Below, piece by piece: positions 6,239-38,914 of a stretch of 46,560 nt of DNA; the first letter of the stretch is position 1; every line of letters begins with the position of its first letter. The position numbers and the translations under genes were made by a program. The stretch lies in NCBI GenBank assembly GCA_963636255.1, contig CAVHJI010000001.1, positions 1-46,560 on the forward strand, read 5' to 3'. Below the pieces are notes generated by a model, which did no database searches, had not been told where the DNA came from, and saw nothing but the letters and a program-made list of their open reading frames with translations. The stretch is from Bacteroidaceae bacterium. GTDB taxonomy: Bacteria > Bacteroidota > Bacteroidia > Bacteroidales > Bacteroidaceae.

Positions 6239-6246
6239 AATAAGTC

Positions 6247-7292: not shown

Positions 7293-7298
7293 GCGAAC

Positions 7299-8750: not shown

Positions 8751-8901
8751 CTTCTGCAAGACCGACATGCTGCGCATTGTCAAGTATCTCGACGACGCTG
8801 CGCAGCTCTATGACCAGCACCAGGGGCTCCGCTACTCCAGCCGGGCATGGTGCATCAGAAAACTCACACTAAAACTCAAACGTAAACTATGCGCAAAGTA
8901 A
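8743..8901 (+). CDS. Small hypothetical protein (52 aa, not in the ORF track)
   Basis: Hand translation MVDFCKTDMLRIVKYLDDAAQLY...KLKRKLCAK*. Overlaps both neighbours. Confidence 0.6.
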   Translation: MVDFCKTDMLRIVKYLDDAAQLYDQHQGLRYSSRAWCIRKLTLKLKRKLCAK

Positions 8902-9107
8902 CATCTCAACATCTCACAGGGCGCTACGCGATCGTCAAGATCTTCCCGCACGTCCATGCCCTGAAGGTCGAGGTCGAACAGACCTACATCGACGAAGACG
9001 GTGCCACCGGCAAGGACACCTTCTGGCGCCTCGCCTCCGACCAGGACATCCTCAACCTGAACATTCCCGTGGCAACATGCCACACAGCAAATAACAATAA
9101 CCATTAA
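8889..9107 (+). CDS. Hypothetical protein
   Basis: 72-aa ORF within the operon. Confidence 0.6.
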   Translation: MRKVTSQHLTGRYAIVKIFPHVHALKVEVEQTYIDEDGATGKDTFWRLASDQDILNLNIPVATCHTANNNNH

Positions 9108-9414: not shown

Positions 9415-9763
9415 CCCCTTCGGCATTCCCTTCCGCGGTCGCAGCAAGTACGGCAACATACGGGCCGGCGAGCATGCGTCGCGGAAGGAGCACCGCCGGG
9501 CTGCAGAGCTCCGCATCATGCAACGCGCCGGCCTCATCGCCGACCTGCAGGAACAGGTGCCTTACGTCCTCATCCCTGCCCAGCGCGACGCCGACGGCCG
9601 CCTCATCGAGCGGGCCTGCAGCTACATCGCCGACTTCGTCTACACCGACACGGCCACCGGACAGACCGTCGTCGAAGACACGAAGGGCGTGCGGACGAAG
9701 GAATATATCATCAAGAGGAAGCTCATGCTGCATGTCCACGGCATACGCATCCGCGAAATCTGA
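9392..9763 (+). CDS. DUF1064-like PD-(D/E)XK endonuclease (possible resolvase)
   Basis: SKYGN..SRKE..LQEQVPY..YIADFVY..VEDTKGVRT motifs. Confidence 0.8.
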   Translation: MKKRTTSNPFGIPFRGRSKYGNIRAGEHASRKEHRRAAELRIMQRAGLIADLQEQVPYVLIPAQRDADGRLIERACSYIADFVYTDTATGQTVVEDTKGVRTKEYIIKRKLMLHVHGIRIREI

Positions 9764-9774
9764 ACACACACACC

Positions 9775-10338
9775 ATGCAAAGAGACTGTTTCACTTTCCA
9801 GCGCAGCTACTACGAGGCCATCCGTCTCCTGCCTCCCGAGGTACAGGCCGAGGTCTACCCGGCCCTCATCGAGTATGCGCTCAACGATCATCTGCCCGAC
9901 GACCTGTCAAGCGTCTCGCGGTCGCTGCTCATGCTCATCTGCCAAGCCATCGACACCGACGCCTCGCGCCGGCGCAAGGGACGCACCGCCGGGCGCAAAG
10001 GTGGCAGACCTATCGGCGCACGGACCAGGAAAGACACGCCTGCGCTACCCGTGCAGGCCGTACAGCCGCTGGACATTGACGACATGCGTGGCGCATTAGC
10101 GCTGTCTGCAGACCGCAGTTGGAACGAAGCGACGTGCATGAACTACTCTATCGACATGGACGAGCTGCACCGACGCATCGAGGCCTTCATGCTCCACTGC
10201 AAGTCCGACTGCGCTGGCCAGACGCACACCGACGTCAATGATGCCAAGAGGCATTTCTGTGCATGGATGCGAAAGGCCTATCCTGCAGAGAAACCGGCGT
10301 CCTACGATGCTGCCGGCTTCGGTTCGTCCGACATCTAA
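9775..10338 (+). CDS. Putative replication initiator (DUF6291-like N-terminus)
   Basis: FTFQRSYYEAI..LIEYAL..GRKGGRP motifs, directly upstream of the ATPase. Confidence 0.65.
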   Translation: MQRDCFTFQRSYYEAIRLLPPEVQAEVYPALIEYALNDHLPDDLSSVSRSLLMLICQAIDTDASRRRKGRTAGRKGGRPIGARTRKDTPALPVQAVQPLDIDDMRGALALSADRSWNEATCMNYSIDMDELHRRIEAFMLHCKSDCAGQTHTDVNDAKRHFCAWMRKAYPAEKPASYDAAGFGSSDI

Positions 10339-16166: not shown

Positions 16167-16697
16167 CTATGCCAGCCAGTGCTGTCGTATGCGTGTCCGC
16201 GTCATGCGGGCAGCCAGCGCCGACCGTATCTCGCTCTCTGCGGCGTCGGCCTTCTCCAGCCACGCCCCGGCCTTCTCGGTGTTCGCCACGCTCATCCAGT
16301 CTGCCAGCGCACGGCACACCAGGTATTCGTGTATCAGCCGCTCCAGCCACTCCGCGGTCGTCTGCGAGAAGGCGCCCGGCACGCTCATCTCTATCTTGTA
16401 CACGGGCGTCTCCTTCAGCGTGTCGTCGAGCACCGTCTCCACCACGCTCCTCTTCGTGAACGGGTAGAGCATCTCCGTGCAGCCGGCCACACACAGGTCC
16501 AGCATGCGTGTCACGCGGTCCACGTTGCCGGCCTCGCCGATGTCGGTCAGCGTGTGGCGGGCTTCCTCGTTGTCCGTCGACATCACGTGCCCTTCCACGT
16601 AGGCCATGTCGCGGATGTCATACAGCAGCTCGTCACGCTTGAAGGTCAGCGTCACGGCTATCTTTCCGTCACCGGCTATCTCGTAGGTACAGCTCAT
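16167..16697 (-). CDS. Putative tail adaptor/ring protein, paralog 3
   Basis: Shares LLYDI...IHEYLV..LADW with the two upstream genes. Confidence 0.6.
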   Translation of the reverse strand: MSCTYEIAGDGKIAVTLTFKRDELLYDIRDMAYVEGHVMSTDNEEARHTLTDIGEAGNVDRVTRMLDLCVAGCTEMLYPFTKRSVVETVLDDTLKETPVYKIEMSVPGAFSQTTAEWLERLIHEYLVCRALADWMSVANTEKAGAWLEKADAAESEIRSALAARMTRTRIRQHWLA

Positions 16698-16718
16698 CGC
16701 ATGCCTCCTTCCTGTCGC

Positions 16719-17216
16719 TTACGCCGTCGGACGCGACGGCCGACTTCTCTTACTCACCGCCTGTGCTATGTTCCCCAGGCTTCTCGTGGCCAGCGCCACA
16801 TACTGCTCGGCATCGGCCTTGTTCGTCACCATGTACCACTCGGCGATCGTCGTGTTCTTCAGGTAGTCGTGCACCGCCTCGCCCACGCCGGCCGTCGCTG
16901 CCTCGTTGAAGTTGCTCGGCATCTGCAGCGACAGCGACAGGTCCGTCTTTCCGTCGTAGTGGCTGTTGTCCGTGCTGGTGCCGTCCTCGTCCAGATATTC
17001 CGACAGCACGGTCTTCACCTCGGCAAAGCCTTTCTTAATTGAGCGCAGTATCTTCTCGCGGTTCTCCTCGTCCTCCGAGGCGAACATGCTCGCCACCTCC
17101 TTGTGGTTGTCCGCATTCTGTATCGTGCGGCCGCGAAGGTACGTCTCGTTCATGATGTCGTACAGCAACCAGTCTATCTTGATGGTCACCTTCACTTCCT
17201 TCTTGTTGTCTGCCAT
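16719..17216 (-). CDS. Putative tail adaptor/ring protein, paralog 2
   Basis: LLYDIMNETY...VHDYLKNTTIAEWY...RSRPSRP. Confidence 0.6.
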   Translation of the reverse strand: MADNKKEVKVTIKIDWLLYDIMNETYLRGRTIQNADNHKEVASMFASEDEENREKILRSIKKGFAEVKTVLSEYLDEDGTSTDNSHYDGKTDLSLSLQMPSNFNEAATAGVGEAVHDYLKNTTIAEWYMVTNKADAEQYVALATRSLGNIAQAVSKRSRPSRPTA

Positions 17217-17244
17217 TGTCTTTCCTTTTATGCGTTATTTATCC

Positions 17245-17724
17245 TTAATCCTGCGGACGTGTCGGGCGCCGGCGGCTGTAGAGCAGACGCTCGGCGCTCA
17301 TCATCAGGTCGGCTGCCTGCGTGTAGTAGTCCTCCTGCTCTGTCTTGTTCGCAAACTTGAACCACTGCGCCACGATGCTCGCCACGAAGTAGTTGCGCAC
17401 CGTGCTCTGCACGCTCGCCGTCAGCTCCTTGTCGAAGTTCTTGCTCACCTCCAGCTCGGCGACATAGGCCGTGCGTGCCTTCTCGTCCGTGTCCGTCACG
17501 GCCCGCGTCGCTCCCGACAGCAGCATCTCTTTCAGACGCTCGTTGCAGGCAAGAACGCTCTCTTCCCAGAACCGGCTTAGTGTCGACAGGTCCGCGTCCG
17601 TCGCCAGGATGCGGTCATGGGCTGTCGCGTCGCCGTCGATCAGCTTGGCGCCGGTGTATTCGGTAGCCTTGGCCACCTCGCCGTACACGTCGTCCTGGTA
17701 TATGGTGATCTCTATCTTCTCCAT
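17245..17724 (-). CDS. Putative tail adaptor/ring protein, paralog 1
   Basis: VYGEVAKATEY...VRNYFVASIVAQWF...RRRPTRP. Confidence 0.6.
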   Translation of the reverse strand: MEKIEITIYQDDVYGEVAKATEYTGAKLIDGDATAHDRILATDADLSTLSRFWEESVLACNERLKEMLLSGATRAVTDTDEKARTAYVAELEVSKNFDKELTASVQSTVRNYFVASIVAQWFKFANKTEQEDYYTQAADLMMSAERLLYSRRRPTRPQD

Positions 17725-18826: not shown

Positions 18827-19325
18827 GGTCGTTCTTCGCTTTCAACCCAGTCAAGTCCACGTCAAAGTGTCTCGACGTCTTGTCTATCATGATGCGCTGC
18901 AGCATGCGCCACAGCCGGCTCTCGCTCTCCGTCCGGCAGCTGCTCTCGTTCTCCAGCATGCTCCAGGCCTGTTCGAAGCAGATGGCGCCTGTCACCACGT
19001 ACGACAGCGGGATGTTCACATGCACAAACACCCAGTGCTCTGCCATGTATGCCAGCACGATGGCCCACAGGCGTTTCGGGATGGTGTCCTTCACCGTCTT
19101 GCCGAAGGCAAACGACGTGAACTTCGCTGCCTCACGCTGCGTCTTGTCGGGGAACGTCTTGTGCACCCGGCGGTCCAGCCGGTAGGCTGTGTATGCGTCG
19201 CTTAGGATGAACACCACGGCTACCACGGCCAGCGGGAAGGCCGGGTTAAACTCGGCCACTATCCAGCCCAGTGCTCCGCCGATGCCCATCGCGATCATCT
19301 TCCATATCTTCAATGTAATACTCAT
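18810..19325 (-). CDS. Holin
   Basis: Multiple TM segments, ICFEQAWSMLEN motif, overlaps the endolysin start. Start set downstream of the promoter at 19345. Confidence 0.8.
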   Translation of the reverse strand: MSITLKIWKMIAMGIGGALGWIVAEFNPAFPLAVVAVVFILSDAYTAYRLDRRVHKTFPDKTQREAAKFTSFAFGKTVKDTIPKRLWAIVLAYMAEHWVFVHVNIPLSYVVTGAICFEQAWSMLENESSCRTESESRLWRMLQRIMIDKTSRHFDVDLTGLKAKNDHGGTD

Positions 19326-19344
19326 CTCGCTCTGTATATGACGG

Positions 19345-19386
19345 CAAATATACAACGCCTTCCCGCTTCACGTCCTTTATCTGTTG
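19345..19386 (-). promoter_or_regulatory. Putative late promoter for the lysis/adaptor operon
   Basis: Minus strand reads CAACAGATAAAGG-N21-TATATTTG. Confidence 0.7.
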
Positions 19387-19390
19387 TGCG

Positions 19391-19687
19391 TCAGCACAGC
19401 AGCCACCACATCAGCACGAAGCCCAGGCACGCACCCAGCACGCCGGCAGCAAGGTCTATCAAGTCGAAGGCATCGTCGTCGGTGCTGTCAAAGTAGTCGC
19501 CGGCCTCCTTCGCTATCGCCACCAGCACGCCGCCTATCGCGCCCTCGGCGGCATACACCTCTGCAGCATAGCCGGGGTCCACCTTCGCAAACACCAGCGC
19601 CGTCAAGAAGGTCACCGTCAGGATGCCGATGAAGTGGGCCACTCTGTCCATGCCCACACGCTCTATCATCTTATTCAGTTTTCTCAT
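19391..19687 (-). CDS. Small membrane protein
   Basis: Start MRKLNK overlaps the upstream stop. DRVAHF..KE..D..DLAAG pattern, three TM segments. Confidence 0.65.
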   Translation of the reverse strand: MRKLNKMIERVGMDRVAHFIGILTVTFLTALVFAKVDPGYAAEVYAAEGAIGGVLVAIAKEAGDYFDSTDDDAFDLIDLAAGVLGACLGFVLMWWLLC

Positions 19688-19992
19688 ATTTCTATGATGT
19701 TGGTTCGTCCGTCGTCGTATTTGAAGTATGGCGCACCGCAGTTCCTCACAGCCACGTAGTACGCCAATGCCCACAGCGCCATCCACTTCCGTTTCACCCA
19801 GCAGTGGCCTCCGCGCTTCACCGTCAGCATCATGTTACCCAGCAGCCGAAGGTCGGCTTCCATGCGGTCTTCCTCTGTGCCGCCGCGGTCGTAGTCGTCG
19901 TCATGCACGCAGCAGGCCGCATAGAAGGCCTGGGCGTATGGGGGCCGAAACCATTTCAGCCACCCCGTCTCACAGCCGCATCCGTTACTCAT
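19684..19992 (-). CDS. Phospholipase A2-like small protein
   Basis: NGCG..ACCVHDDDY..R.EAD..YYVAVR.CG resembles the PLA2 His-Asp fold. Confidence 0.6.
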   Translation of the reverse strand: MSNGCGCETGWLKWFRPPYAQAFYAACCVHDDDYDRGGTEEDRMEADLRLLGNMMLTVKRGGHCWVKRKWMALWALAYYVAVRNCGAPYFKYDDGRTNIIEI

Positions 19993-20479
19993 AAGCCGCC
20001 CAGTCCATGCTGTCCTTCTCTTCCCAGCCGGCCTGCAGGCATTGCTGGATATGCCCGATGCACGTCGTGTAGAAGTCCGTGAACGTCGTCATGTCCTCAA
20101 ATGTGTAGTACTGCGCCTCGCCGTCCGCGTCCTCGCCCAGCTTGAATTTCAGCGGCAGCGTCTGTCCCTGCAGCTGCACGGCAAGGTCGTAGGCGGCCTT
20201 GTAGTTGCGCTGGTTCTCTTCGCTTAGCCACACCTGCATGCCCTGCCACCGGCAGCCGCTCTCAATCTTCTCGTCCGTCTGCCGGTCTATCAGCCGATGG
20301 ATGTCCTCACGCACCTCCGACAGCGCCGGACGGTGGTCGTAATACTTCCTCCACTCGTAGCCCTGTCCGTCCTCTTCTCCATGTCCGTAGAGCAGCAGGT
20401 AGTTGTCCTTGCCGATCTCCACCAGCCTGTCCTGGCGCTCCGTAGCACCGTAGCACTTGTAAAAGTTTGTCTTTGCCAT
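19985..20479 (-). CDS. Tail-fibre-associated protein (DUF4376-like)
   Basis: WQGMQVWLSEENQRNYKAAYDLA..LPLKFKLG motif, downstream of the RT. Confidence 0.6.
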   Translation of the reverse strand: MAKTNFYKCYGATERQDRLVEIGKDNYLLLYGHGEEDGQGYEWRKYYDHRPALSEVREDIHRLIDRQTDEKIESGCRWQGMQVWLSEENQRNYKAAYDLAVQLQGQTLPLKFKLGEDADGEAQYYTFEDMTTFTDFYTTCIGHIQQCLQAGWEEKDSMDWAAYE

Positions 20480-20489
20480 AATCGTCTGT

Positions 20490-21833
20490 TTATGTGAATT
20501 TGTATTTTACTTTGCTTCCGCCAAAATATTCTGCAGCTATCACCGTCGAGAAGGGTATCTCGCCCATCGCGCTTAGCGTCTCCAGGTTGCTCTTCATCTC
20601 ATCGCTGTCGGTGAAGAACTTACTCAACTCGCCGGTCCTCGTGTCCCGGAACTGCACCAGCCAGCGTTCGCCGTAACGTGTCTTCACGTCACGCTCATAG
20701 TCCAGTATCTCTATGCGCACGTTCACCAGCTGGCGCAGCTGCGTCGTCCCGTTGGCAAAGCGCTTCTTGCCGTCTTTCGGGGTGTAGGTCACCCCAAGCT
20801 CCGCAAAGCTTTTCATGTGCTCTTTTCGCGCCTTCCGCTTGATCTTGTTGCTTTCTGCATGGTGCAGCATCGTCTCCAGCAAGTGGGTGCTCTGGGCATG
20901 CTTCGCCATGCCCCACAGCGAGCCCACAAGGGCCTTCCGGCGTTTCCGGCTCGTCACCTGTCGCAGCTTGCGTGCAAACCGTTGCTTCACCCGTTTGCGC
21001 AGCCGCACATGGCCGTCGGGGTACATCACATAGCCCAGAAAGTCCAAGCCTTCCGCCACCGGAAACACACGCTCGTTCGGCTTTATCTCCTGACAGATGC
21101 CGTCCACACATTCATGCACCAGCGCCCGCACCTCCCACAGCTCTGCCTTGCTCCCGGCAAGCACCACACCGTCGTCACAGTAGCGGTAGTAGTGCTTCAC
21201 GCCGTAGCGGTCCTTGAGCTGATGGTCCAGCGCTTGCGACAGCAGCATGTTGCACAGCCCTTGCGAGGCGCGTAGGCCTATGCTCATGCCCTTCGGCAGC
21301 AGCCGCACGAAGCGTTCCACGATGGTCAGCAGGCGTGCGTCCTTGAAGGTCCGGCGCAGACACTGCATGATGATGTCCTGGTCCACGGTCTCGTAGAACT
21401 TCCGCACGTCAAACTTGTAGCAGTACCTGGTGCCCTCCGGGTCGTCCCTCATGTCGCGCATGATGTATGCCTTCAGCTCATGCAGCCCTCTGCCCTTGAT
21501 GCTGGCCGAGGTGGTCCGCACATACCGGCGGTGCAGATGGCGGTCCACGGGCGTCATCACGGCGTTCACCGCTATGCGCTCGCTCATCGGGAACACCTGT
21601 ATGTTCCGCTCCTTGCCGCCTTCGCGCACGAGCCGGGCATGGAAGTGCCGCACCGTCAGCGTGCCGTCTTCTATCTGTTGCTTCAGCTTAGCGAGGAAGG
21701 TCTCTCGGTGCTCCAGCAGCCAGCGGCCTTCCTTCAAGTTCTTGCGGTACGTGCCGCGCACCACCGTGTCGAAGGCTTGCTCAAGGTTCGCCTGCGCCAC
21801 GATCTCTTCTATGATGTGCCCGTCACGTTGCAT
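20490..21833 (-). CDS. DGR reverse transcriptase with fused C-terminal domain
   Basis: YKFDVRKFY, GMSIGLRASQ (DGR-type GxxIGxxxSQ), YYRYCDD and GLDFLGY motifs. Adjacent to TR/VR. Confidence 0.95.
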   Translation of the reverse strand: MQRDGHIIEEIVAQANLEQAFDTVVRGTYRKNLKEGRWLLEHRETFLAKLKQQIEDGTLTVRHFHARLVREGGKERNIQVFPMSERIAVNAVMTPVDRHLHRRYVRTTSASIKGRGLHELKAYIMRDMRDDPEGTRYCYKFDVRKFYETVDQDIIMQCLRRTFKDARLLTIVERFVRLLPKGMSIGLRASQGLCNMLLSQALDHQLKDRYGVKHYYRYCDDGVVLAGSKAELWEVRALVHECVDGICQEIKPNERVFPVAEGLDFLGYVMYPDGHVRLRKRVKQRFARKLRQVTSRKRRKALVGSLWGMAKHAQSTHLLETMLHHAESNKIKRKARKEHMKSFAELGVTYTPKDGKKRFANGTTQLRQLVNVRIEILDYERDVKTRYGERWLVQFRDTRTGELSKFFTDSDEMKSNLETLSAMGEIPFSTVIAAEYFGGSKVKYKFT

Positions 21834-22240
21834 TATTGTTGCGCTTTTTGTATAATGCTTGTTTAACTTTTTTGTTTATTGGTTCTCCTTCAGTTCCGCC
21901 GGTCTAAGGCCGTCGGGATGTCTCCCTACCAGTCTCTACCGGCTTCTTGTCGTTTTTCAGCTTTCCGCAGGGGGCTCCTGCGCTTCTGCTGCGGTTCGGG
22001 CTTCTCGTCCGTCTGCTCTCCGCCATCGCGTAGCGGTATGCCGTAGGGACGATTTCCTAAAGGTGTATGTTCTGTGTGCAAGCCGCGCCCCGTTGTCCCT
22101 GTTCGCATTCGACGATGCGTTGTTCGCGTTCGCATAAGCGAGACCGCCGTTCGCATTGCCGTTGTTATTCGAGCGACCAACCACGCGGCCGATGAAGCCC
22201 TCTGCCGTTGCTCCCCTCATCGAGAGGGGGAGCGTATATT
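21834..22240 (-). ncRNA. Putative DGR template RNA (TR plus flanking structured spacer)
   Basis: Non-coding interval between target and RT that contains TR. Hairpins near 21966-21982 and 22210-22233. RNA ends not determinable. Confidence 0.55.
22078..22191 (-). repeat. DGR template repeat (TR)
   Basis: In frame it reads RVVGRSNNNGNANGGLAYANANNASSNANRDNGARLA, with 11 AAY codons and 26 adenines on the coding strand. Confidence 0.95.
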
Positions 22241-22282
22241 TCTCTTTGTCATATTTCTTTACATTTCCGTTTTCTGCGGTCG

Positions 22283-22304
22283 GTCGCCCCGTGGCCGGGG
22301 CGAC
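22283..22304 (-). other. DGR target-recognition hairpin downstream of VR
   Basis: GTCGCCCCG-GCCA-CGGGGCGAC on the minus strand: a perfect 9-bp GC-rich stem with a 4-nt loop, just after the target stop. Confidence 0.7.
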
Positions 22305-22341
22305 ACGCTTTGTCGTTTTTCGTTCTTTCGCTTCTTCGCTC

Positions 22342-25300
22342 TTACGCTATGTCGTTCTCTACGCTTATCGCGCCTCTGAAGGCAAGCCGCGCCCCGTAGT
22401 TCCCGCTCGCACACGACGATGCGCTGCCCGCGCTCGCACAAGCGAGACCGCCGAACGCAACGCCGTTGCCATCCGAGCGACCAACCACGCGGCCGCGAGA
22501 AGCAGAATATGAATGCTGGTCGCAGTAGTTCTGGGCCCACACAGAGTTGTCGCTCGTCAACTTGCTGGCGATGATGTCACAGTGCCGGCCGTGCTTCACT
22601 CTGCCGATGCAGCGTCCGCTGTCGGTCACACCCTGCACCACGCGCTCGGTCTTCGTCAGCGGGTCGAAGATGTGCCACTTCCCGTCTATCGGGTCGCTGT
22701 TGTTCGAATCGAGCATCTTCGTCTTCTTCCACTCGGCATACGTGCTGATATTCACGCCGACGTTGTCCATCACCTCCCAGGTGCAGCCGAAGAAGCTCTC
22801 GAAGCCCATACACTTGTTGCCAGCGATCTGCCCGCGCTCCGAATCGCTGTTGCCCAGCGTGTCGGCATAGCCCGTCGTGCCGCCGGCACCGCGGCCGTAG
22901 CCGCACAGCAGCTGCGCGTCTCTGTTGCCGGTCAACGAGTAGTACAGGTTCGCCATCACCTTCGACATCTCGTAGTCGAAGAGCTGGTAGCCCTGCCCGC
23001 GCCGGGCCGCGAGGTTCATCAGGTCCTTACAGGTGTAGTGAAGCGTGCCCACGGGTGTGTTCGTCGGGTTGCCCTCGCCATCATAGGTCCACTCCGACGA
23101 GGTCGTTGACGTGCCGTCGCCGCACCTGACGGTGGCGTTGCTGATGCTGCGTAGCTGCGTCAGCGTGTCCACGCTCGCATGATACACACCGCCGAGGCAT
23201 TCCTGCTGCTCCACCCAGTCGGGTTCGATGGCTTCTATCTCCGCAGAGTCCACAGCGATGGCTTCCAGCGTGTTGTTCTTGATGTTCGAACCGAACACGA
23301 AGGCCACAGCGCCGTCAGGCACGTCCGTGAAGATGTAGTCGCCCTCCACGTAGTCGAACATCGCGTTGCTCACAGCCATGTTGTACTTGCCGATGATCAC
23401 GCCATCGGCGTTCACAAACACGCCGCCGATCTGCTGGTGGTTCACGCCCGGCCAGCGCACCTGCTTCATGCCGGTCACGTCGATGCGGTAGGCGTTGTAG
23501 CCACTCGTCGTCACCAGCACGCCGTCACTGTTCAGCGTACTCTCGCCGACGGTCACGGCAGTCACCGTCACTGCCACATTCTCCGCATACACGATGTCCT
23601 TCAGCACATGCCGGTTGATGGCGTTCGCCGTGCTAAGGGGCTCGCTCTCCGACGACGACCAGCAGATGTACTTCTTCTGGTTCTTGAAATCGTTTACGCC
23701 CTTGTACCAGCAGTGGGGGATGCGCATCATCACGTCAAAGCCGGCGCCGGTCGTGTCCTTATAGTCAAACTCCGTGCCGTCCACCAGGTTGTGGTAGTTC
23801 GCGTTGCTGATGCGCTCGCCTTCCCACACGCCGGTCTCCGTGTTCAGCTTGCCCTTCACGGGTACCAGACGCTGGCGGATGCGGGTCACATGGCCGCTCG
23901 CCACATACGTCTCGCCCGTCGTGCCGTTGTCGAGGTTCGTCACGTTCTTCGGGTCGTTCACCGTGTCGTCAAACACCACCGTGCTATACTGCGAGTTGAT
24001 CACCTCCAGGCGGGGGAAGTACGTCTGCAGCGCCTTCAGCTCGCTCGCCTCGATGAGCTCCTTCAGGATCCACCGGCCTATGATGCCGCTACACTGGCCG
24101 CTCTCCTCGTAGGTCGTGCCGCTGGCGTCGATGCCCACGGCACCGCTCGTCTTCATCGCACGCAGCATCTCCACGCTCGCCGTCGTCTTCACGTCCGGGA
24201 TGCGGATGCTCTTCAGTGCCGAGGCTGCGGTAACGGCCTGCAGCAGCTGCATGGTGTCCACGCCCGGGCAGCTGTCGAGGAAGAACTTCGTCACCTTCTC
24301 CATGCCGGCCACAGTCAAGCCGCCGGGGTACGACAGCTTCGGCAGGTTCTTCAGCCACAGCGTCGTCATCGTGGCGGGCAGCTGCAGCGTCTCCACAGGG
24401 GCTGTCTCCGCGATGTCGATGTTCGACAGCTGACTGCCGGCGGCCAGCACTTCCTTCAGGCGGGGGCAGTACGTGGCGCTCACGTTCGTGACCTTCGTGT
24501 TCCGGATGTCTATCCGGCGCAGGAAGCTCTTGTTTCCGAGGTTCAGCTGGGTGATGGCGCCGCTGCCTTCCACCGGGCTGTAGTCCTCGCCGCCCATGAT
24601 GAGCTCCTGCAGCAGGGTGCAGGTCGAGATGTCCCAGCCCTCCGCCTTCGGCGTGCAGCCGCTAAGGTCGAGGCTCGCCAGCTTCGACGCACCGAACACA
24701 TACAGCATCGTGCCGCTGCCGTCGGCAGTCACGCCGCTCTTCAGCGTGTAGCTCTCGCCGGCCTTCAGGTAGCACGAATCGGTGCAGGTGTCGGCACGGT
24801 CCACGCCGAGGCCGAAGAAGGCGTCCTGTGCGGCAGTGATGGTGATCTTGATGTCGGTGCCCACCGCACGCATCTTGAACGGGTTGTTGTACAGGTCGCC
24901 CACCTGGTAGTAGCCGTCTCTGTACGAGAAGCGTTTCTCGAAGGTCTCCGGCAGGTCTTCCTGGCGCAGGCCGTGCACGGCGTAGTAGTAGTTGGCGCCT
25001 TCCTTCGAGTTCTCGATGTACTTGCGCTCGCCGTCAAATGAGCTGACGACCTTCGCATACTTCGCGATGCGGTCTGTTATCCACAGCTTCTCGCAGCCGG
25101 CAGCACTGAAGATCTTGATGCCGTCGGCCTCTGCAAGGCGCATGTCGCCGGCGATGTCGTGCAGCGTCACGGTGCTCGCACCGTTCGCACTCGTCCACAG
25201 CGTGCTGGCCGAATACGTCTGCTTGAACATCACCGAGTTCCAGCCTTGGTAGTAGTGCTTCGGATCTTCCTTCGCATCAAGGTCCCAGGGTACCGTCAGG

Positions 25301-28300
25301 CCGCAGTCGTTGTCTGCAAGCCATGTGCAGTCGCCGTCATACCAGTGGTTGAAGTAGGCGCGTGTCTTGCCCGTCGTGTCGAGGTAGAAGCCGATCATCA
25401 TGTTCTTCGACCGCTGGTCCACGGCCAGCACATAGTCGGAGGCTATCACGTAGCAGCCGGTGCTCTTCACATTGGCATACTCCCACAGCTCCTCGCTCCA
25501 CTTCTTCAGGCGGTTCTCCTTCGTGCCTGCCACTGTCGTGCCGTGCAGGGTGATGGTGCCGTCGTTCTCGTCCAGCATGTGGCTGCACTGCTGTGCCCAT
25601 GCCAGCCAGCGGTAGAGGTTGTAGGGGGCTTTCTTGCCGGCTTCATACAGCGCGTTGAGGTCGTCGTCGTCGGGGTAACGGCTCTCGTAGTATTGCAACC
25701 AGATGGGCGTGCCGTCGCTGTCGAGGGCCATCATGTCGTCGAGGCTGTTCACGCCCTGCAGCCAGCAGAAGCTGTCATACTTCAGGTATTCGTAGCACTC
25801 CGTCGGGTTCAGCACCCTGCCCGTGGCGGTCCACTTCTTCGTTGACGCGTCATACGTGAACGTGCCGGTGGTGTCCTTCCACACGCCGCCTGCATACTTC
25901 GCATATTTGCCGTCGCTCGTCGCATACACCGTGCCCCAGTCGTAGTCGTCCACGTTGTCGGCGAGCACCTCGGCAAGCGTCTTGTCCACAGGGGTGGCGT
26001 CGGCCACGGCCGTCGTCTCCGTCATAGCGCCGCTGCCGTCGTTCTCCAGGAACACATGGTCCGGACCGCAATACTCCGACAGCATGTACATCTCGCTGGC
26101 GATGAGCTCGCTCGTGTCCTTCAGCACGGCTGCCTTGTAGTCGGCGAGGCTCTGCCCCTTGGCGGCCACAAGCTCCTTGAAGTCGCCGTAGTTCACACAC
26201 ACGTCGGTGTAGCCGCTCACCTTCTCGAAACCGAAGAAGTCGGGGTTGCCCTTGTCCACGTTGAAGTTTGCCTTCGCATGGAAGTAGGCGTAGGTCTCGT
26301 TCGTCGCGTCTACGCTCTGCTTGTCGGTCCTGAACAGCGCAGCACTCACCGAATCGATGCTGGTGTTCATCGTGCCCTCACCGTTGTAGAACACCTGTGC
26401 AGGTGTCATGTAGTCGCTGCCCATGGCGCGTTGCGTCTTGTTCATCAGCTCCATCATCGCACCGTTGTTCGCACCGGTAGAGTCGGAGTAGTCCACCTTC
26501 ACGGTAATGGTCTTCACCCACAGGCCGCCGTCGATAACCTGTATCTTGTACTTCTTGGCCATCTTCACACACTGCCTGAACTTAGCCAGCTGCTCTTCGT
26601 TGTCCTTGAAGTCGCCCTCGGTGTGCAGCAGCTCTATCTTGCAGCCCTTCAGCTTCAGCTTCTTGTTCTTGATAGGCCGCATGCTCGACGTCGTGCCCTG
26701 GTTCGTGATGGTCACCTTGTAGGCCTTGAAGTCTTGCCATGGCCGGTCGGGGAAGCGCGCCACCACGTCAAAGTAGGCCTTCGTCTTCTTGTCGCCGTCC
26801 AGGGTGTCAAGATAGCCGGGGTAGCTCTGCTCGATGTCTTCCGTCTCCGCGTTCTTCAGCAGCGTCACGGTGCACAGCCCTGCCTCCATACAGGCCGACA
26901 GCGTCGGGCGGTCCTTCGTCGTGCCTTCGGCGGTCTGCGAGGCCATCACGTCGTTCTTCTCATACTCGCTCAACATCTCGCTGGTGTCCTTCAGGCCTAC
27001 CAGGTAGTTGTTCAGCGCCTGCCGGAAGTTGTAGTAGGTGGCCCAGCCGGTGATGCGATACAGATACAGGTCGGCCTTCGTGCCGTCAAACTTGATGGTG
27101 GCCTTGCTCGGGTCCAGACGTCCGGCGGTGTAATGGGTGGCTGCTGCCTCATCGCCGTTCACGTATATCTTGATCGAGCCGATGCCCGAATAAGGTGCGA
27201 TGCTCGACGGCTCCATCACGATGTCGAAACGGGTCACACGGTCCGTCCGGTACAGTGCCACGGCTGTCTGCTGGGCGCCAAGGTCGTCGGGATCGGCAGC
27301 GGTGCCGCCGTCGCAGGTGAACACCAGCTTCTCGCCGGTCAGGTAGAAGCCCATCTTGTTGTCGAGGAGGCAGTCTATCAGCTTCGCTGTGCGGTCTTCC
27401 ACGTTCTTCACGCGCACCGTGAACGACAGCGCCATGCCGTTCTGCTCGATGCTGCTCGACGCAAACGGCTGGTACGAGCACTCCGCGGTCATATCCTCGG
27501 CAATGCGCAGTGCCATGCGGCCGGTGTCCTGCTCGGTGCCGTATGTCGACGTGCCGTAGCTGTCCTTCACAAAGCCGGTCGTGCTCCAGTTGCAGCCTGT
27601 CGTCACGATGCTCACACCGCTGTCCTTGATGCTGTGGTCGGTCTCGGTGTTGTTGCGAGAGTCCATCATGATGTTAAACTCGCGCTGGTCGGTCACCTCT
27701 TCCACGTCCACCAGCGAGCCGCTCACCACAAACGTGCTGGCCTGCGACATGATGCCGTCACACTCCAGCTGCACCGTCACGCTCTTCGTGCCGTCATGCA
27801 CGCTCTCCAGCACTTGCTTCGTGTACCGTCCGGTCGTGCCGCGGTATGCCACGGTGCTGCTGTCCTTGGCGCCGTCGTAGTTGATGGTCACCTGGGGCTC
27901 GTCGGTTGTCGACACATACACAGCGTAGTCTATCTCGATGCTCTCGTAGAGCTTCTTCACGCCGGTGGCACCTTCCGTGTACCAGCGGGTCACCACGATG
28001 GGGGTCGCGTCGCCGTCCTCTATCACCATCACCGACGTGTGCAGATAGTTACCCTGCACGCCGCTGCCCACGTCCTCGCCATGGATGCGGAGCGAGTAGG
28101 CTCCGTGTGTGAGCACCTTGCCCAGACAGTTGCGGGGGTCGATGCTGATCGAATGCGAGTAGGTGTCTGTCACCACGCTCGTGCCGAGCGTCTGCCACTC
28201 GCCGTCCAGTTCCATCTCCGTCACCACCTTGATACCCTTGTCGCTCGCGTTGTTCGCAAACTTGTACATCGGCAGGTTCTTCGAGGTGCCGCCGACGGCC

Positions 28301-30477
28301 AGCACGGTGTTCGCCGTGTAGTTCAGCGTCTGCACGCTCGTTATCGTCACGTCCACGCCGCTCACGTTGATGTTGCGGCTGCCGGTGTTGCCGGCATCGT
28401 CGGTCACCACCAGCTGCAGGCGCTTGCTCGTGGCGGTCACGAAGTAACTGCTTACATCAAACGTGAAGTCGTAGGTCTCCGCGCTGGCGCTGCTCTTCTG
28501 GTTCAGCTTGTAGGTCTCCAGCGTCTGGCCGGTGTCGCGGTCCTTCAGCACACACTCCGCAATGGCGTTGTCCTGCTCCACACTGCCCATGCTGGTGATG
28601 CTCCTGATAGAGGCTTTCAGCACCACGCTGCCGCCTGCCTTGGCATACAGGGGGCTCTCCTCAAACTGGATGCTCACGATCGTGCCGCTCGAGCTGCCGC
28701 TGCCGGTACCTACGGCAAACTGCACCTCGTCGCCGACGGTGTCGCCGTCTGCGTTCTTCATCGACATCTTCACCACGCCCTCCGTCTCCGTGTCCACAGC
28801 AAGCGTTGCGGGCATGTTGCTGTAGGCTCCGCCTGCGCTGAAGGGCTCCTTGCTGCCGGCTTCCGGCGTGTCCGTAGTCGTCACAGCGGTGTTGCCGCCA
28901 CCGCCAAACTCCACCCAGGGCTTCTCGTCGGCGGGGTTCAGGTCTTCGATGGCACGGGTAAACTGGTACGCCTTCCACACCGGACTGCCGTTGTTCGTCG
29001 TCTCTGCCGTGCGGTAGGTCAGCACCACGCCGCTCTTCATGTACTGCAGGCCGCTCTCCGTCTGCTTGTCAAGCACAGCCTTGATAGCCGTCGACAGCGT
29101 GTATTCCGTGTCGTCGCAGATGTCGTTCACGTTCACCGTGTTGCCGATGGCGCTGCCGTTGCTGCCGAAGTCGGTCCAGTTGGTCTCCGTCTTCCAGTCG
29201 CTCTCCGTCTGCGTGCCGTAGCTCGTCCACTGCTTGTTCTGCACTCCGTTGTCGGAGAGGAACGACAGCACGATGCCGGGCTTCATGTAGCGGGCTTTGT
29301 CGGCGAGGTCAAAGACTTTCTCCAGCACCACAGAGAAGGTCACAGCACGCCAGCCGAGGCCCAGCAGCGAGTTTGCGTTGATGGTGTTGCCGTTCTGTAT
29401 CTCCACGTCGTGTGCGGCGATGGCTGTGGCGTTTGTCTCGCTCTTGCTCTCCGCAGCTGTCAGGCGGGTGTCAAGCAATGCGGTGTCCTGGCCGAGCCCG
29501 GCAAGCATGTTCTTCACCGTTGCCGGGATGTTCTCCGTCCATGCGCTCCACGCGCCCTGGTCGGTGTCCGTCCGGCTGATGTTGTACGACCGGCTGAAGG
29601 TCGTGACGGCACGGTCGCTGTGCGTAGAAAAGTCGAGCGCACCCGACGAGCTGGCCGTATAGTTACTCGTCAACACCTCCGTGAGCTGATGGCTCATGCT
29701 GTCGGAGAACATGTCAATGACACCGAGGATGATGCCCGCATCGTCGACAAGCGTCCAGCGGGTGTGATGGCCGTCGGCAATCATCGCCTTGGCTTCATCA
29801 ATGCTGGCGGGTATCGTGTCAATCTCGCTCAACTTGAGCACTCCCACCATCTTGTCGATGGCTGTCTGCAGCGTCGCGTCTGCTGCCGTGCGTGCCGCAG
29901 TCTCCGCGTTCACGTCGCTCTGCGCCTTCGTTGCGGCTGTCTGGGCGCCGTCGGCGGTGCTCTGCGCCTTCTCCGCTGCTGCCTGGATGTTATTGATCTG
30001 GTTCCCTTGTGTCGTCTGTCCGGTGCGCAGGCTCTTGATGTCGTCCGTGTTCTGCGCCACGTCCACCTTCACGGCTTCGATGTCGCCGGTCAGCTCCTCC
30101 ACGGCTTCCATATATTCGGTGCTGTCCACCGTCGGGTTGCCTTTGTACAGCGGGTTGCCGGCGCTGTCCACCTGTGCCACCCATGCGCCGCCGTCGGCTA
30201 CATACAGCTGGCCGAGGTGGTCGCTTGTCGCACTGCCTTCAACGGCCACCAGCGCCCACCATCCTTCGTGTGGATTGGGGTATGCCTCGCGGAGCTGCGC
30301 CGCAGTCTTGAACAGGCCTTTGTTTGGGCCTTTGATGTTCTTGGCTTCAAGCCAGCCTTCCACCGTCAGGTTGTGGGCCACCGTCAGCGAACCGCGCACC
30401 GTGCCGGTGCCGCCCATGCTCACGTTGCGGCCTATCGCTACGTCTCCGTCTATCTGCTTTGTTGGTATCGAACTCAT
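22342..30477 (-). CDS. Giant tail/receptor-binding protein, DGR target (LamG-like, CotH-like, LRR and C-terminal C-lectin-fold regions)
   Basis: 2711 aa. VR at the C-terminus preceded by FGCTWEVMD. LRR-like repeats at about 24150-24700. N-terminal coiled coil. Confidence 0.85.
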   Translation of the reverse strand: MSSIPTKQIDGDVAIGRNVSMGGTGTVRGSLTVAHNLTVEGWLEAKNIKGPNKGLFKTAAQLREAYPNPHEGWWALVAVEGSATSDHLGQLYVADGGAWVAQVDSAGNPLYKGNPTVDSTEYMEAVEELTGDIEAVKVDVAQNTDDIKSLRTGQTTQGNQINNIQAAAEKAQSTADGAQTAATKAQSDVNAETAARTAADATLQTAIDKMVGVLKLSEIDTIPASIDEAKAMIADGHHTRWTLVDDAGIILGVIDMFSDSMSHQLTEVLTSNYTASSSGALDFSTHSDRAVTTFSRSYNISRTDTDQGAWSAWTENIPATVKNMLAGLGQDTALLDTRLTAAESKSETNATAIAAHDVEIQNGNTINANSLLGLGWRAVTFSVVLEKVFDLADKARYMKPGIVLSFLSDNGVQNKQWTSYGTQTESDWKTETNWTDFGSNGSAIGNTVNVNDICDDTEYTLSTAIKAVLDKQTESGLQYMKSGVVLTYRTAETTNNGSPVWKAYQFTRAIEDLNPADEKPWVEFGGGGNTAVTTTDTPEAGSKEPFSAGGAYSNMPATLAVDTETEGVVKMSMKNADGDTVGDEVQFAVGTGSGSSSGTIVSIQFEESPLYAKAGGSVVLKASIRSITSMGSVEQDNAIAECVLKDRDTGQTLETYKLNQKSSASAETYDFTFDVSSYFVTATSKRLQLVVTDDAGNTGSRNINVSGVDVTITSVQTLNYTANTVLAVGGTSKNLPMYKFANNASDKGIKVVTEMELDGEWQTLGTSVVTDTYSHSISIDPRNCLGKVLTHGAYSLRIHGEDVGSGVQGNYLHTSVMVIEDGDATPIVVTRWYTEGATGVKKLYESIEIDYAVYVSTTDEPQVTINYDGAKDSSTVAYRGTTGRYTKQVLESVHDGTKSVTVQLECDGIMSQASTFVVSGSLVDVEEVTDQREFNIMMDSRNNTETDHSIKDSGVSIVTTGCNWSTTGFVKDSYGTSTYGTEQDTGRMALRIAEDMTAECSYQPFASSSIEQNGMALSFTVRVKNVEDRTAKLIDCLLDNKMGFYLTGEKLVFTCDGGTAADPDDLGAQQTAVALYRTDRVTRFDIVMEPSSIAPYSGIGSIKIYVNGDEAAATHYTAGRLDPSKATIKFDGTKADLYLYRITGWATYYNFRQALNNYLVGLKDTSEMLSEYEKNDVMASQTAEGTTKDRPTLSACMEAGLCTVTLLKNAETEDIEQSYPGYLDTLDGDKKTKAYFDVVARFPDRPWQDFKAYKVTITNQGTTSSMRPIKNKKLKLKGCKIELLHTEGDFKDNEEQLAKFRQCVKMAKKYKIQVIDGGLWVKTITVKVDYSDSTGANNGAMMELMNKTQRAMGSDYMTPAQVFYNGEGTMNTSIDSVSAALFRTDKQSVDATNETYAYFHAKANFNVDKGNPDFFGFEKVSGYTDVCVNYGDFKELVAAKGQSLADYKAAVLKDTSELIASEMYMLSEYCGPDHVFLENDGSGAMTETTAVADATPVDKTLAEVLADNVDDYDWGTVYATSDGKYAKYAGGVWKDTTGTFTYDASTKKWTATGRVLNPTECYEYLKYDSFCWLQGVNSLDDMMALDSDGTPIWLQYYESRYPDDDDLNALYEAGKKAPYNLYRWLAWAQQCSHMLDENDGTITLHGTTVAGTKENRLKKWSEELWEYANVKSTGCYVIASDYVLAVDQRSKNMMIGFYLDTTGKTRAYFNHWYDGDCTWLADNDCGLTVPWDLDAKEDPKHYYQGWNSVMFKQTYSASTLWTSANGASTVTLHDIAGDMRLAEADGIKIFSAAGCEKLWITDRIAKYAKVVSSFDGERKYIENSKEGANYYYAVHGLRQEDLPETFEKRFSYRDGYYQVGDLYNNPFKMRAVGTDIKITITAAQDAFFGLGVDRADTCTDSCYLKAGESYTLKSGVTADGSGTMLYVFGASKLASLDLSGCTPKAEGWDISTCTLLQELIMGGEDYSPVEGSGAITQLNLGNKSFLRRIDIRNTKVTNVSATYCPRLKEVLAAGSQLSNIDIAETAPVETLQLPATMTTLWLKNLPKLSYPGGLTVAGMEKVTKFFLDSCPGVDTMQLLQAVTAASALKSIRIPDVKTTASVEMLRAMKTSGAVGIDASGTTYEESGQCSGIIGRWILKELIEASELKALQTYFPRLEVINSQYSTVVFDDTVNDPKNVTNLDNGTTGETYVASGHVTRIRQRLVPVKGKLNTETGVWEGERISNANYHNLVDGTEFDYKDTTGAGFDVMMRIPHCWYKGVNDFKNQKKYICWSSSESEPLSTANAINRHVLKDIVYAENVAVTVTAVTVGESTLNSDGVLVTTSGYNAYRIDVTGMKQVRWPGVNHQQIGGVFVNADGVIIGKYNMAVSNAMFDYVEGDYIFTDVPDGAVAFVFGSNIKNNTLEAIAVDSAEIEAIEPDWVEQQECLGGVYHASVDTLTQLRSISNATVRCGDGTSTTSSEWTYDGEGNPTNTPVGTLHYTCKDLMNLAARRGQGYQLFDYEMSKVMANLYYSLTGNRDAQLLCGYGRGAGGTTGYADTLGNSDSERGQIAGNKCMGFESFFGCTWEVMDNVGVNISTYAEWKKTKMLDSNNSDPIDGKWHIFDPLTKTERVVQGVTDSGRCIGRVKHGRHCDIIASKLTSDNSVWAQNYCDQHSYSASRGRVVGRSDGNGVAFGGLACASAGSASSCASGNYGARLAFRGAISVENDIA
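22382..22495 (-). repeat. DGR variable repeat (VR) at the 3' end of the tail protein gene
   Basis: Encodes RVVGRSDGNGVAFGGLACASAGSASSCASGNYGARLA, with 18 mismatches to TR. Confidence 0.95.
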
Positions 30478-31784: not shown

Positions 31785-33299
31785 TTAGGCTGTTGCCATC
31801 ACGTCACCGGCGAACTCCACCCAAGACGTGCCCTTGTACTGCCACATCTGGCCGCTCATGGCCTCGGCATTGATACCGGGACAGTCGGCGATAAGGTAGT
31901 ACACGTCACCGTCGGCGGGTGTTGCGGGGGCCTCCTCGCTGTCCCACAGATGGATCTGCGTAGCGCTGGCGTTCTCGCTGTCGCCCTCGCCGTTGATCCA
32001 GATGTGGCAAGAGCCCTTCAGTGCAAGGGCATCCCACACCAGCATCGACTCGCGTGTTGCCTCCTCGCCGTCCACGCGGTCCTGCGATGAGTGCTCGGCT
32101 GAATACTGGTAGTGCACCAGACGGTCGGGAGCCACCACGAAGGCGCTGTTGCTCCACTTCAGGCGGTCCAAGGTGGGGTCGTGCTTGAACTCGATGTCAC
32201 CGAACACGGTGTGGAAGTTCGTCACCACCCAGCCCACGGGGTTCGTCACTGTGGTAATCTGGATCTCCGGGTGCTTCGAGTAGTCGATGCACTGGATGTT
32301 CTCCAGGAAGTTCTTGCCGGCAAGGGCAATCACGTTCTTGGGTACGTCCTCACCGGTGAACACCATCTTGGCCAAAGCCACGATCTCCTCAATGGTCCAC
32401 TTGCCGCTGTGCTGCAGCTCCTTCTTCACCTGGTAGCGCACGCCCTCGGTGAAGTAGATGGTCTGTGCGCCGACCTCGTCGGTCTGCACGGTCATCTTGC
32501 CTTTGCGACCGGCATACAGGGTGCGGTTGCCGCGTACCTTGAAGTTGGTGATGGCGGCCTCGGCGATAACAGCCTTGCCGAAGGGGATCTTCTTCTTCTG
32601 GGCCTCGTAGTAGTCACTCACGATCTGGTTCATGCCGCGCTTCTGCAGGTACACCGTGGTACCCTGGGGGACGATCAAGTCGGGGTCTACCTTCTTCTGT
32701 GTCTCGTACAGGGCGTTCGACAGGATGATGAGTGTCGTGCCGGCAGGGATGGCGGGCGTTGTGCAATACTCGTCGGTGCTGGCGCTCTTGGGACCGTTCA
32801 CTGCACGTACGATGGGGTTGCCGCTCGCGGTGTCATGACCGGTCACAAACAGCATCAGGTCCTTGCCGGGGGTGGGTGTCTTGCCGTCCTCGGCATAGCC
32901 GTCCACACCCTTCACCAGCAGCGTGCCGTAGGGACGGGGCACCTCGGCGTCGTTGGCGGCAAGGGGCAGGATAAACTGCTTTGCGGTGCCGGTGGTCACG
33001 GCCGTGGTGGTGGTCACCGACGAACGGGGCTCGTCGATCATATAGTGCTCCACCTCGGGAGAATTGACCTTCACCTTCTTCGCCTTCAGCATCAGCTGCA
33101 TCAGCGGGGTGTCGTCGCTTTTGAATTTGTACAACTCGTTGTCAAGGTCGGCCTGGATGAGGTTACCGGCACCGATGCCGCCGGTAGCGCCGGCAACACC
33201 GCTCACGGTGGTGGGGGCTCCAGGAACCTGACTTTCTACACCGGCACTGCCGGGAACGGGGGTAGCCATGCTACCGCCTACTTTCACTGTCTCGTCCAT
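31785..33299 (-). CDS. Major capsid protein (putative)
   Basis: 504 aa following a scaffold-like gene. DTPLMQL..VEHY and VTNFHTVFGDIEFKHDPTL resemble HK97-fold capsids. Followed by a terminator-like hairpin. Confidence 0.75.
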   Translation of the reverse strand: MDETVKVGGSMATPVPGSAGVESQVPGAPTTVSGVAGATGGIGAGNLIQADLDNELYKFKSDDTPLMQLMLKAKKVKVNSPEVEHYMIDEPRSSVTTTTAVTTGTAKQFILPLAANDAEVPRPYGTLLVKGVDGYAEDGKTPTPGKDLMLFVTGHDTASGNPIVRAVNGPKSASTDEYCTTPAIPAGTTLIILSNALYETQKKVDPDLIVPQGTTVYLQKRGMNQIVSDYYEAQKKKIPFGKAVIAEAAITNFKVRGNRTLYAGRKGKMTVQTDEVGAQTIYFTEGVRYQVKKELQHSGKWTIEEIVALAKMVFTGEDVPKNVIALAGKNFLENIQCIDYSKHPEIQITTVTNPVGWVVTNFHTVFGDIEFKHDPTLDRLKWSNSAFVVAPDRLVHYQYSAEHSSQDRVDGEEATRESMLVWDALALKGSCHIWINGEGDSENASATQIHLWDSEEAPATPADGDVYYLIADCPGINAEAMSGQMWQYKGTSWVEFAGDVMATA

Positions 33300-33338: not shown

Positions 33339-33506
33339 CTATCCGTTGTCTGTCTTGATGAGGTCGCCGGCACCGATGCCGCCGGTGGCCGAAGCCACAC
33401 AGCTCACCGTGGTCATGCCGCCGGGCACATGTGTCTTCAAACCGGCTGTGCCGCACACAGGCATGGCGTGCGGGCGCTCGGGCGGAAACTTCACCACTTC
33501 ACTCAT
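33339..33506 (-). CDS. 55-aa mini-protein paralogous to the capsid N-terminus (not in the ORF track)
   Basis: Hand translation MSEVVKFPPERPHAMPVCGTAGLKTHVPGGMTTVSCVASATGGIGAGDLIKTDNG*. Starts 2 nt after the scaffold stop. Confidence 0.75.
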   Translation of the reverse strand: MSEVVKFPPERPHAMPVCGTAGLKTHVPGGMTTVSCVASATGGIGAGDLIKTDNG

Positions 33507-38872: not shown

Positions 38873-38914
38873 CGAAGATAATACTTCACACCGTCACCTT
38901 GCTCTTAACTATTG
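38873..38914 (-). promoter_or_regulatory. Putative late promoter for the portal gene
   Basis: Minus strand reads CAATAGTTAAGAG-N21-TATCTTCG. Confidence 0.6.

Follow-up and report, generated by a model that had tools for sequence, protein, structure and literature searches.

A Hankyphage-type diversity-generating retroelement in a temperate Bacteroidales phage, with a predicted OB domain on its reverse transcriptase

Background

Among 28 species of inducible Bacteroidota phages, 12 have been reported to carry diversity-generating retroelements (DGRs) (PMC12629997). A DGR is also reported for phages of the BS-TP4 type (PMC12694917), and that of the Hankyphage (Bacteroides phage p00, BK010646) has been demonstrated to be active in culture (PMC12135933). 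In the classification of Wu et al. (2018; PMC5758913), lineage 3a has the gene order target, template repeat (TR), reverse transcriptase (RT), CH1, and its targets (class f1) carry Laminin_G_3, CotH and CLec3 domains. How lineage 3 retrohomes without Avd was left open in that paper, while the RT of phage BPP-1 (bRT) is inactive without this protein (PMC5758913; 10.1101/2023.10.23.563531). The current study concerns a DGR on contig CAVHJI010000001.1 of a Bacteroidaceae bacterium (GCA_963636255.1), the whole stretch of 46,560 nt being referred to as the window. The DGR itself is a further case of a described and common gut lineage (Hankyphage-type 3a). Its RT ends in an extension that is predicted to be an oligonucleotide/oligosaccharide-binding (OB) domain resembling those of single-stranded DNA-binding proteins (SSBs).

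Adenine-specific variation among near-identical phages

The 114-nt alignment of the TR with the variable repeat (VR) is ungapped and has 18 mismatches, of which 17 fall on the 26 adenines of the TR, exactly as the initial annotation had counted (hypergeometric P 6.9e-13). When 300 genomes from the family were searched, a near-identical RT was recovered in contig G095:C37, where the phage is 98.5% identical to the present one over about 31 kb, and a third copy (locus L049) is 98.8% identical over 21 kb. The TR is the same in both of these sisters and differs here at one of 114 positions (nt 22097), which is G in the window and A in the sisters. This is also the single TR/VR mismatch that does not involve an adenine and, since both sisters have A, it is a later change private to this TR and not an error in the VR. 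Relative to the TR common to the sisters, 17, 7 and 17 substitutions are present in the three VRs, all 41 of them at adenines, and 24 of the 27 adenine positions of that TR are changed in the three copies together. The spectrum is A>T 21, A>G 19 and A>C 1, and this scarcity of A>C fits the report that cytosine is rarely observed in Bacteroides DGRs (10.1101/2024.11.15.621889).

The VR stands out against an otherwise conserved gene. Relative to G095:C37, 16 of its 114 bases differ, whereas the remainder of the target gene has 83 differences over 8,022 bases. In each pair among the three copies, 10–12 of the 37 VR residues differ as against 20–22 of the remaining 2,674. The target is randomised at 14 codons of its C-terminal tip, giving about 10^14.6 possible protein variants and no stop codons. 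With an adenine-specific TR/VR pair, an RT of the DGR class, an in-frame VR at the 3' end of its gene and a TR that is nearly invariant between strains, the cassette is, from its sequence, a genuine and apparently intact DGR. Mutagenic retrohoming, as initially proposed, is borne out by three near-identical copies that depart from a shared TR only at adenines of the VR, and by an RT that is closest to the DGR RT of BPP-1. Neither a second VR nor a second RT or target was found in the own genome, and no close copy was found in IMG/VR by single-protein and 21-nt pattern searches.

Immediately 5' of the VR, and beyond the TR homology, a short segment (nt 22502–22518) has seven differences in 17 nt from G095:C37. 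The differences are not templated by the TR and, because the sister at these residues looks like more distant relatives, recombination is preferred to DGR action as their source. The segment is aromatic-rich and variable among relatives, and is perhaps a part of the binding surface altered by recombination. At a separate related locus (L128, TR at nt 9680–9797) the TR itself has a mutagenised look, in that several of its AAC codons are changed relative to the near twin L129, and 9 of 17 mismatches are at A; this is possibly a mis-assembly of VR and TR.

The reverse transcriptase core

The RT is intact, with the YCDD motif (residues 218–221) and the SQ motif (GLRASQ, 186–191) that had been noted at the outset. 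The nearest annotated RTs are those of the Hankyphage, at 52% identity over all 447 residues including the C-terminal extension, and in a quick tree the protein clusters with Hankyphage-type RTs in a 10-row set (SH-aLRT 100). In structural comparisons its AlphaFold model (pLDDT 87.6) is nearest to BPP-1 bRT (8ub7; Z 33.5, root-mean-square deviation (rmsd) 2.5, 321 residues aligned), a group II maturase follows with Z 25.0, and Foldseek agrees. The initial annotation had asked whether the RT would group with those of group II introns or retrons; it does not. That the element is no DGR at all, and instead a group II intron, a retron or a chance duplication, is scarcely credible: NCBIfam does list group II and retron models for this protein, but all remain far under their cut-offs (60.8 of 300 bits; 38.8 of 235; DRT models likewise), a DGR RT comes first by 8.5 Z units, and the variation is at A only.

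The GC-rich end and the template RNA

As the initial annotation described, TR and VR share a GC-rich end and then diverge in a manner resembling IMH and IMH* (initiation of mutagenic homing), the two sequences parting 3' of a 14-nt element. The GC hairpin described with it is present; however, it follows the VR end at a distance of 77 nt and is poorly conserved among related loci.

The region around the TR is predicted to give a structured RNA. Its 5' leader (nt 22194–22207) would pair with the spacer 3' of the TR, so bracketing the TR, and three further spacer stems precede the start of the RT gene. Across 12 relatives, 31 of 47 flank pairs are changed on both sides and 94.8% of cells are paired (0 of 500 shuffles), compared to 31–42% in slid controls, the structure having been derived from the same alignment of 12 relatives that was used to score it. 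In the BPP-1 complex, the upstream and spacer segments of the template RNA pair likewise (10.1101/2023.10.23.563531). No sigma-70-like promoter or coding-strand terminator was found in nt 19300–22700, Bacteroidota promoters falling outside the model used.

Two observations weigh against the cassette being of a working type: only 15 of 48 related loci have a similarly perfect GC hairpin in the interval from VR to TR, and the TR has suffered the private A-to-G change at nt 22097. The latter would be consistent with a cassette that was once active and, in this copy, has since become dormant or begun to decay, as would the state of the contig, which has no terminal repeat and on which no host genes were seen at the ends. 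This is improbable, however, because the RT is intact and differs from its sisters by only 2–3 residues, none in the catalytic motifs, the conserved flank pairs are retained in the RNA of the present copy, and three phages that are about 98.5–98.8% identical have three different VRs.

Cassette architecture and comparison with related systems

The gene order is target/VR, TR, RT, CH1. The initial annotation had likened the DGR to the BPP-1 type (architecture B1 of Wu et al., avd-TR-RT), which holds for the chemistry of A-specific mutagenesis but not for the build, as there is no avd gene and the order is that of lineage 3a. Searches for bAvd gave no match near the RT or elsewhere in the own genome (an 85% complete bin), and no avd-like open reading frame (ORF) lies between target and TR. 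By gene order and content the cassette belongs to Wu lineage 3a, architecture E1 (TG-TR-RT-CH1), of Hankyphage type. It shares with BPP-1 the A-specific mutagenesis, a C-terminal VR, the 14-nt GC end, a downstream hairpin, pairing of the template RNA flanks and the RT fold, and differs from it in the missing avd, a target of 2711 aa and the distance of the hairpin from the VR end.

The Hankyphage has the same gene order, likewise has no avd, and its target is also giant, with the same kinase-like motifs and the same class of VR. Its target has a Laminin_G_3 match, whereas none was found in the Pfam scan of the target described here. The phages themselves are unlike, the Hankyphage having a Mu-like transposase while the present contig has a tyrosine integrase, a P22-like portal and an LPD38 giant protein. 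With BS-TP4 (PQ571277) and BKO1-TP3 the contig shares a collinear late region, an RT with a fused extension, a DUF4376 gene and an endolysin, but the BS-TP4 RT is only 39% identical to the RT here, below that of the Hankyphage. Cassette and backbone therefore have different nearest relatives. A further difference is that an inserted RelE/XRE toxin-antitoxin pair separates the VR from the TR in BS-TP4 (L002, nt 18956–19616).

CH1 is 44% identical to the gene that follows the Hankyphage RT, which is listed as CH1 by Wu et al. (PMC5758913), and at all 160 related loci it is the gene immediately after the RT, many of these loci having no adjacent target. It carries DUF4376, which in tail-fibre chaperones of the Mu type is the conserved part (PMC7882524, PMC10579305), and is probably a tail-fibre assembly chaperone; a tail role for the target is therefore favoured, and CH1 is doubtful as an RT helper. 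An adjacent TR/VR pair was detected in 62 of the 137 loci with enough flank, that of L080 being a tandem-repeat artefact. The other 75 lineage-3a loci (within L048–L207) have TR, RT and CH1 with no adjacent VR or target homologue, and their targets may be remote.

The C-terminal extension of the reverse transcriptase

About 20% of DGR RTs have extensions without recognised motifs (PMC5758913). That of the present RT is conserved in 53 of 53 aligned RTs. Modelled alone (pLDDT 85.7), its best structural neighbour is the SSB P12 of phage PRD1 (Z 6.4, rmsd 3.2, 87 residues aligned), followed by eIF5A (5.4) and T4 gp32 (5.3), and the list is dominated by SSB, RPA and CST entries. These and similar neighbours we take to be OB folds. 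A BFVD search returned podovirus SSBs (E 8e-4) after three other RTs, and ESM features place the extension in a cluster of which 44% is phi29-type SSB (PF17427). Several values argue against this reading: the recognition score in the ESM comparison (1963) is below 2300, the best Z is below the caution level of 8, and Foldseek found no match in the PDB at E 0.001. A profile of the family gave no sequence-level match in PDB or Pfam, identity to SSB OB folds is 11–20%, and the likeness to phage SSBs (PRD1 P12, T4 gp32, phi29-like and podovirus SSBs) is in fold only. Residues 340–447 are thus presented as a predicted SSB-like OB domain.

The same family also occurs as a separate gene. When 400 genomes from the order were searched with a profile built from 20 free-standing homologues, out of 150 listed, 12 outside matches were obtained, every one of which is tied to an RT of the same kind and none to Avd. 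Three are fused, seven directly follow the RT and two lie between target and TR, i.e. in the avd slot; a TR/VR pair was seen at 9 of the 12 loci. The free-standing homologue in the avd slot of L213 is, by eye, identical except for one residue to row t122 of PAG1, a 'potential accessory gene' that Wu et al. (PMC5758913) described for three DGRs and called tenuous. PAG1, which is matched by the extension-family profile, is a separate gene while its homologue here is fused, and from these matches the extension is homologous to PAG1. Neither this link nor a fold for PAG1 is mentioned in the text and supplement rows of Wu et al. that were compared (PMC5758913). In a literature search, which left subscription papers and bioRxiv supplements largely outside, an OB or SSB domain on DGR RTs was not named, and prior notice of it is possible. 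A LoVEphage-type OB gene that had appeared free-standing was rejected as such because it belongs to a frameshifted RT.

Among 39 RT loci, 13 have the OB domain, 3 have Avd and none has both, and the OB domain is absent at 30 of 30 bAvd loci. Of the 21 RTs with the OB domain in a quick tree built from 52 RT cores, 20 group in a single set of 22 rows (SH-aLRT 97), which is separate from the 8 Avd rows. The RT search behind these counts favoured relatives of the present RT, at most 4 candidates were scored per genome, many contigs were short, and kin are not independent. Judged by profile matches and this tree, the OB domain marks one Avd-less branch of RTs. BPP-1 bRT is without the extra domain (10.1101/2023.10.23.563531).

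Whether the domain takes over the nucleic-acid-holding job of Avd is evenly balanced, on the predicted fold and the distribution together, although no better candidate for it was identified. The domain is basic, stays with the RT also where it is a separate gene, and twice occupies the avd slot. Working against such a role, 23 of the 39 loci have neither OB nor Avd, and neither profile matched at any of six RT loci of crAss, Lactobacillus and Psychrobacillus phages, although in crAss phages some genes may be masked by recoded stops. The domain is therefore not a universal substitute for Avd, even if two of the 'neither' loci give faint full-length OB matches (E 0.07 and 0.8). A plausible competitor, to which we give rather lower weight, is that CH1 is the helper, as Wu et al. 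read it, or that lineage-3 RTs need no helper, the OB domain only aiding processivity or cDNA integration. The constant position of CH1 after the RT, including at loci without an adjacent target, would fit this, as would the restriction of CH1 to DGRs without avd (PMC5758913) and the many loci with neither protein. On the other hand CH1 is acidic (pI 4.70) whereas Avd is basic (PMC5758913), and its domain is that of tail-fibre chaperones.

Some further variants of this RT were seen. Locus L015 (G159:C10) has an RT with two tandem OB-like domains, and L264–L288 include a well-supported clade of 21 RT rows, mostly in the order target, RT, TR, with no Avd or OB match. The DNA upstream of the invariant Met340 is A-rich (0.52 vs 0.27), a difference confounded by relatedness and by Lys/Glu codons; an internal start at this residue was considered, and no claim is made for it on account of that confounding.

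The target protein

The target is 36.5% identical over its full length to BS-TP4 gp14 and 24–30% identical to the Hankyphage target, with 24–27% over two stretches. Its VR-bearing domain probably has a C-type-lectin fold of the CLec3 class, the VR motif resembling the CLec3 rows of Wu et al. (PMC5758913); ESM features point, as a lead only, to a cluster of the FGE-sulfatase type (0.84). Further upstream is a kinase-like region with residues that are invariant in 10 of 10 homologues and are also present in the Hankyphage and BS-TP4 targets. Aligned by hhalign to 21 CotH domains, the region has its catalytic-loop and DxD motifs in register, but the score (E 0.22) is not significant and no better than that of an RT control (E 0.072), and a Pfam CotH match appears in one of ten homologues, at E 0.094. 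The CotH label for the target family comes from published descriptions (including PMC5758913, 10.1101/2020.04.01.020958 and PMC8008677).

The target is probably a tail part and may be a receptor-binding protein of the virion; on indirect evidence, the variation of receptor tropism proposed in the initial annotation is plausible. A tail role is favoured because of the PHROG match of the VR domain to tail proteins, the position of the gene between head and lysis genes, and the DUF4376 in the next gene after the RT. The authors of the Hankyphage study consider its target a putative tail fibre (PMC12135933), PMC12694917 says likewise for its phages, and PMC6199706 gives the function as unknown. 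Against this stand the fact that neither the VR domain nor the kinase region has a significant match in PDB or Pfam (PDB sequence searches with the whole target, a C-terminal profile and a kinase profile all being negative), and the marking of this family by Roux et al. as an exception to structural targets (10.1101/2020.04.01.020958).

An alternative is that the DGR is real and its target acts in the lysogen or during infection, as a variable lectin-like sensor joined to a CotH-like kinase, with a part in host signalling or superinfection. A possible host signalling role has been suggested for CotH-lectin targets (10.1101/2020.04.01.020958), the fusion is called non-standard and is described as unstudied (10.1101/2020.04.01.020958; PMC8008677), the kinase-type residues are strictly kept, and the full-length family, phrog_14959, has no functional label. 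We nevertheless consider this unlikely, as the gene shares its strand with the portal and capsid genes within the late operon and is followed by the DUF4376 gene and the endolysin, the VR domain is homologous to tail proteins, and a kinase region is compatible with a location in the virion.

The phage and other features of the contig

The window is one whole contig of 59% G+C, from a 1.92 Mb bin that is 85% complete and has 53% G+C. It carries genes for an integrase, RecT, a helicase, a terminase, a P22-like portal, an SU10-type capsid protein, an LPD38/DarB-like giant protein and an endolysin, and is collinear with BS-TP4 (portal 69%, target 36.5% identical); by this gene content the carrier of the DGR is a temperate Bacteroidales phage related to BS-TP4. 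The features of the cassette are collected in Table 1.

Table 1. Features of the DGR cassette and its target gene in the window.
Feature	Position (nt)	Strand	Basis or remarks
CH1 gene, 164 aa, pI 4.70, DUF4376	19985-20479	-	Pfam DUF4376 29.2 bits vs cut-off 25
DGR RT, whole ORF, 447 aa	20490-21833	-	uninterrupted
RT extension, aa 340-447 (108 aa), pI 9.2, predicted SSB-like OB fold	20490-20816	-	model and profile
DGR RT core, aa 1-339	20817-21833	-	Pfam RVT_1; 52% to Hankyphage RT; fold
Structured template RNA (predicted)	21886-22207	-	z -3.4 and pair conservation in 12 relatives
TR	22078-22191	-	26 A (8 AAC, 3 AAT codons)
GC-rich hairpin, perfect 9-bp stem, 4-nt loop	22283-22304	.	z -4.2, 0/200 shuffles
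Target gene, 2711 aa, phrog_14959	22342-30477	-	homologue of BS-TP4 gp14 and Hankyphage DGR target
C-terminal VR-bearing domain, last 299 aa	22345-23241	-	phrog_5302 'tail protein', E 7e-15
14-nt GC-rich element common to VR and TR, start of IMH	22382-22395	-	IMH named by analogy with Wu et al. 2018 (PMC5758913)
VR	22382-22495	-	codes residues 2662-2698 of the 2711-aa ORF, same frame as TR AAY codons
Kinase-like (CotH-like) region, aa 1327-1716	25330-26499	-	K1327, D1687/N1692, D1714/D1716

Elsewhere on the contig, the 2547-aa giant protein is 99% identical to its counterpart in the sister phage L028 over residues 38–1506, while its C-terminal 1,041 aa (LPD38, DarB-like; nt 38909–42034, minus strand) are replaced in L028 (nt 5446–9015) by an unrelated stretch of 1,190 aa with no PHROG match. 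From this comparison, the difference is a module swap between phages that are 98.5% identical. At the start of the capsid gene is a 106-nt imperfect repeat (73%; nt 33147–33252 and 33348–33453), of which the sister has an extra copy there, and three tandem paralogues (phrog_19255/35482) occupy nt 16167–17724 at the end of the late operon, as they also do in BS-TP4.

Close relatives of the contig fall in bins labelled as unrelated phyla. Some bins hold at least two related DGR phages, as with G095:C37 and C77 (RTs 100% and 58% identical) and with contigs C154, C153 and C138 of bin G263 (RTs 80% and 42%). Several DGR phages in one bin would permit cross-talk or recombination between cassettes.

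Proposed mechanism and implications

The account that we consider well supported is of a working type of DGR in an Avd-less Bacteroidota lineage, 3a, whose variable tip has a role in binding. An RNA comprising leader, TR and spacer would fold with its flanks paired around the TR, a structure suggested by covariation. The RT would then copy the TR with errors at adenines, the outcome of which is seen in three genomes, and the cDNA, by analogy with BPP-1, would replace the VR starting from the GC/IMH end. The result would be randomisation of the 14 tip codons of the 2711-aa protein. Probably, though with somewhat less assurance, the tip is the receptor-binding domain of a virion protein assembled with the help of the DUF4376 protein, CH1, so that binding to the host surface would be altered. 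That the fused OB domain does the nucleic-acid-holding work of Avd in these steps could go either way.

A wider reading can be put forward tentatively, being rather less than an even bet. A large branch of Bacteroidota DGRs, including the Hankyphage, LoVEphage/Quimbyvirus and BS-TP4 types with their relatives, may have exchanged the Avd pentamer for an SSB-derived OB domain taken from phage replication genes, which is either joined to the RT or kept as a free gene, PAG1. Together with its structured RNA, the fused RT would then amount to a single-protein machine for mutagenic retrohoming, and CH1 would be the chaperone of a kinase-bearing receptor-binding protein and not a DGR factor. The link from the extension to PAG1 and to an OB fold offers a testable account of retrohoming without Avd. 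If true, a DGR that needs one protein would make an easier tool for targeted mutagenesis, and reading CH1 as a chaperone would leave three of the four listed classes of accessory protein and would support a virion role for the CotH-lectin giant proteins.

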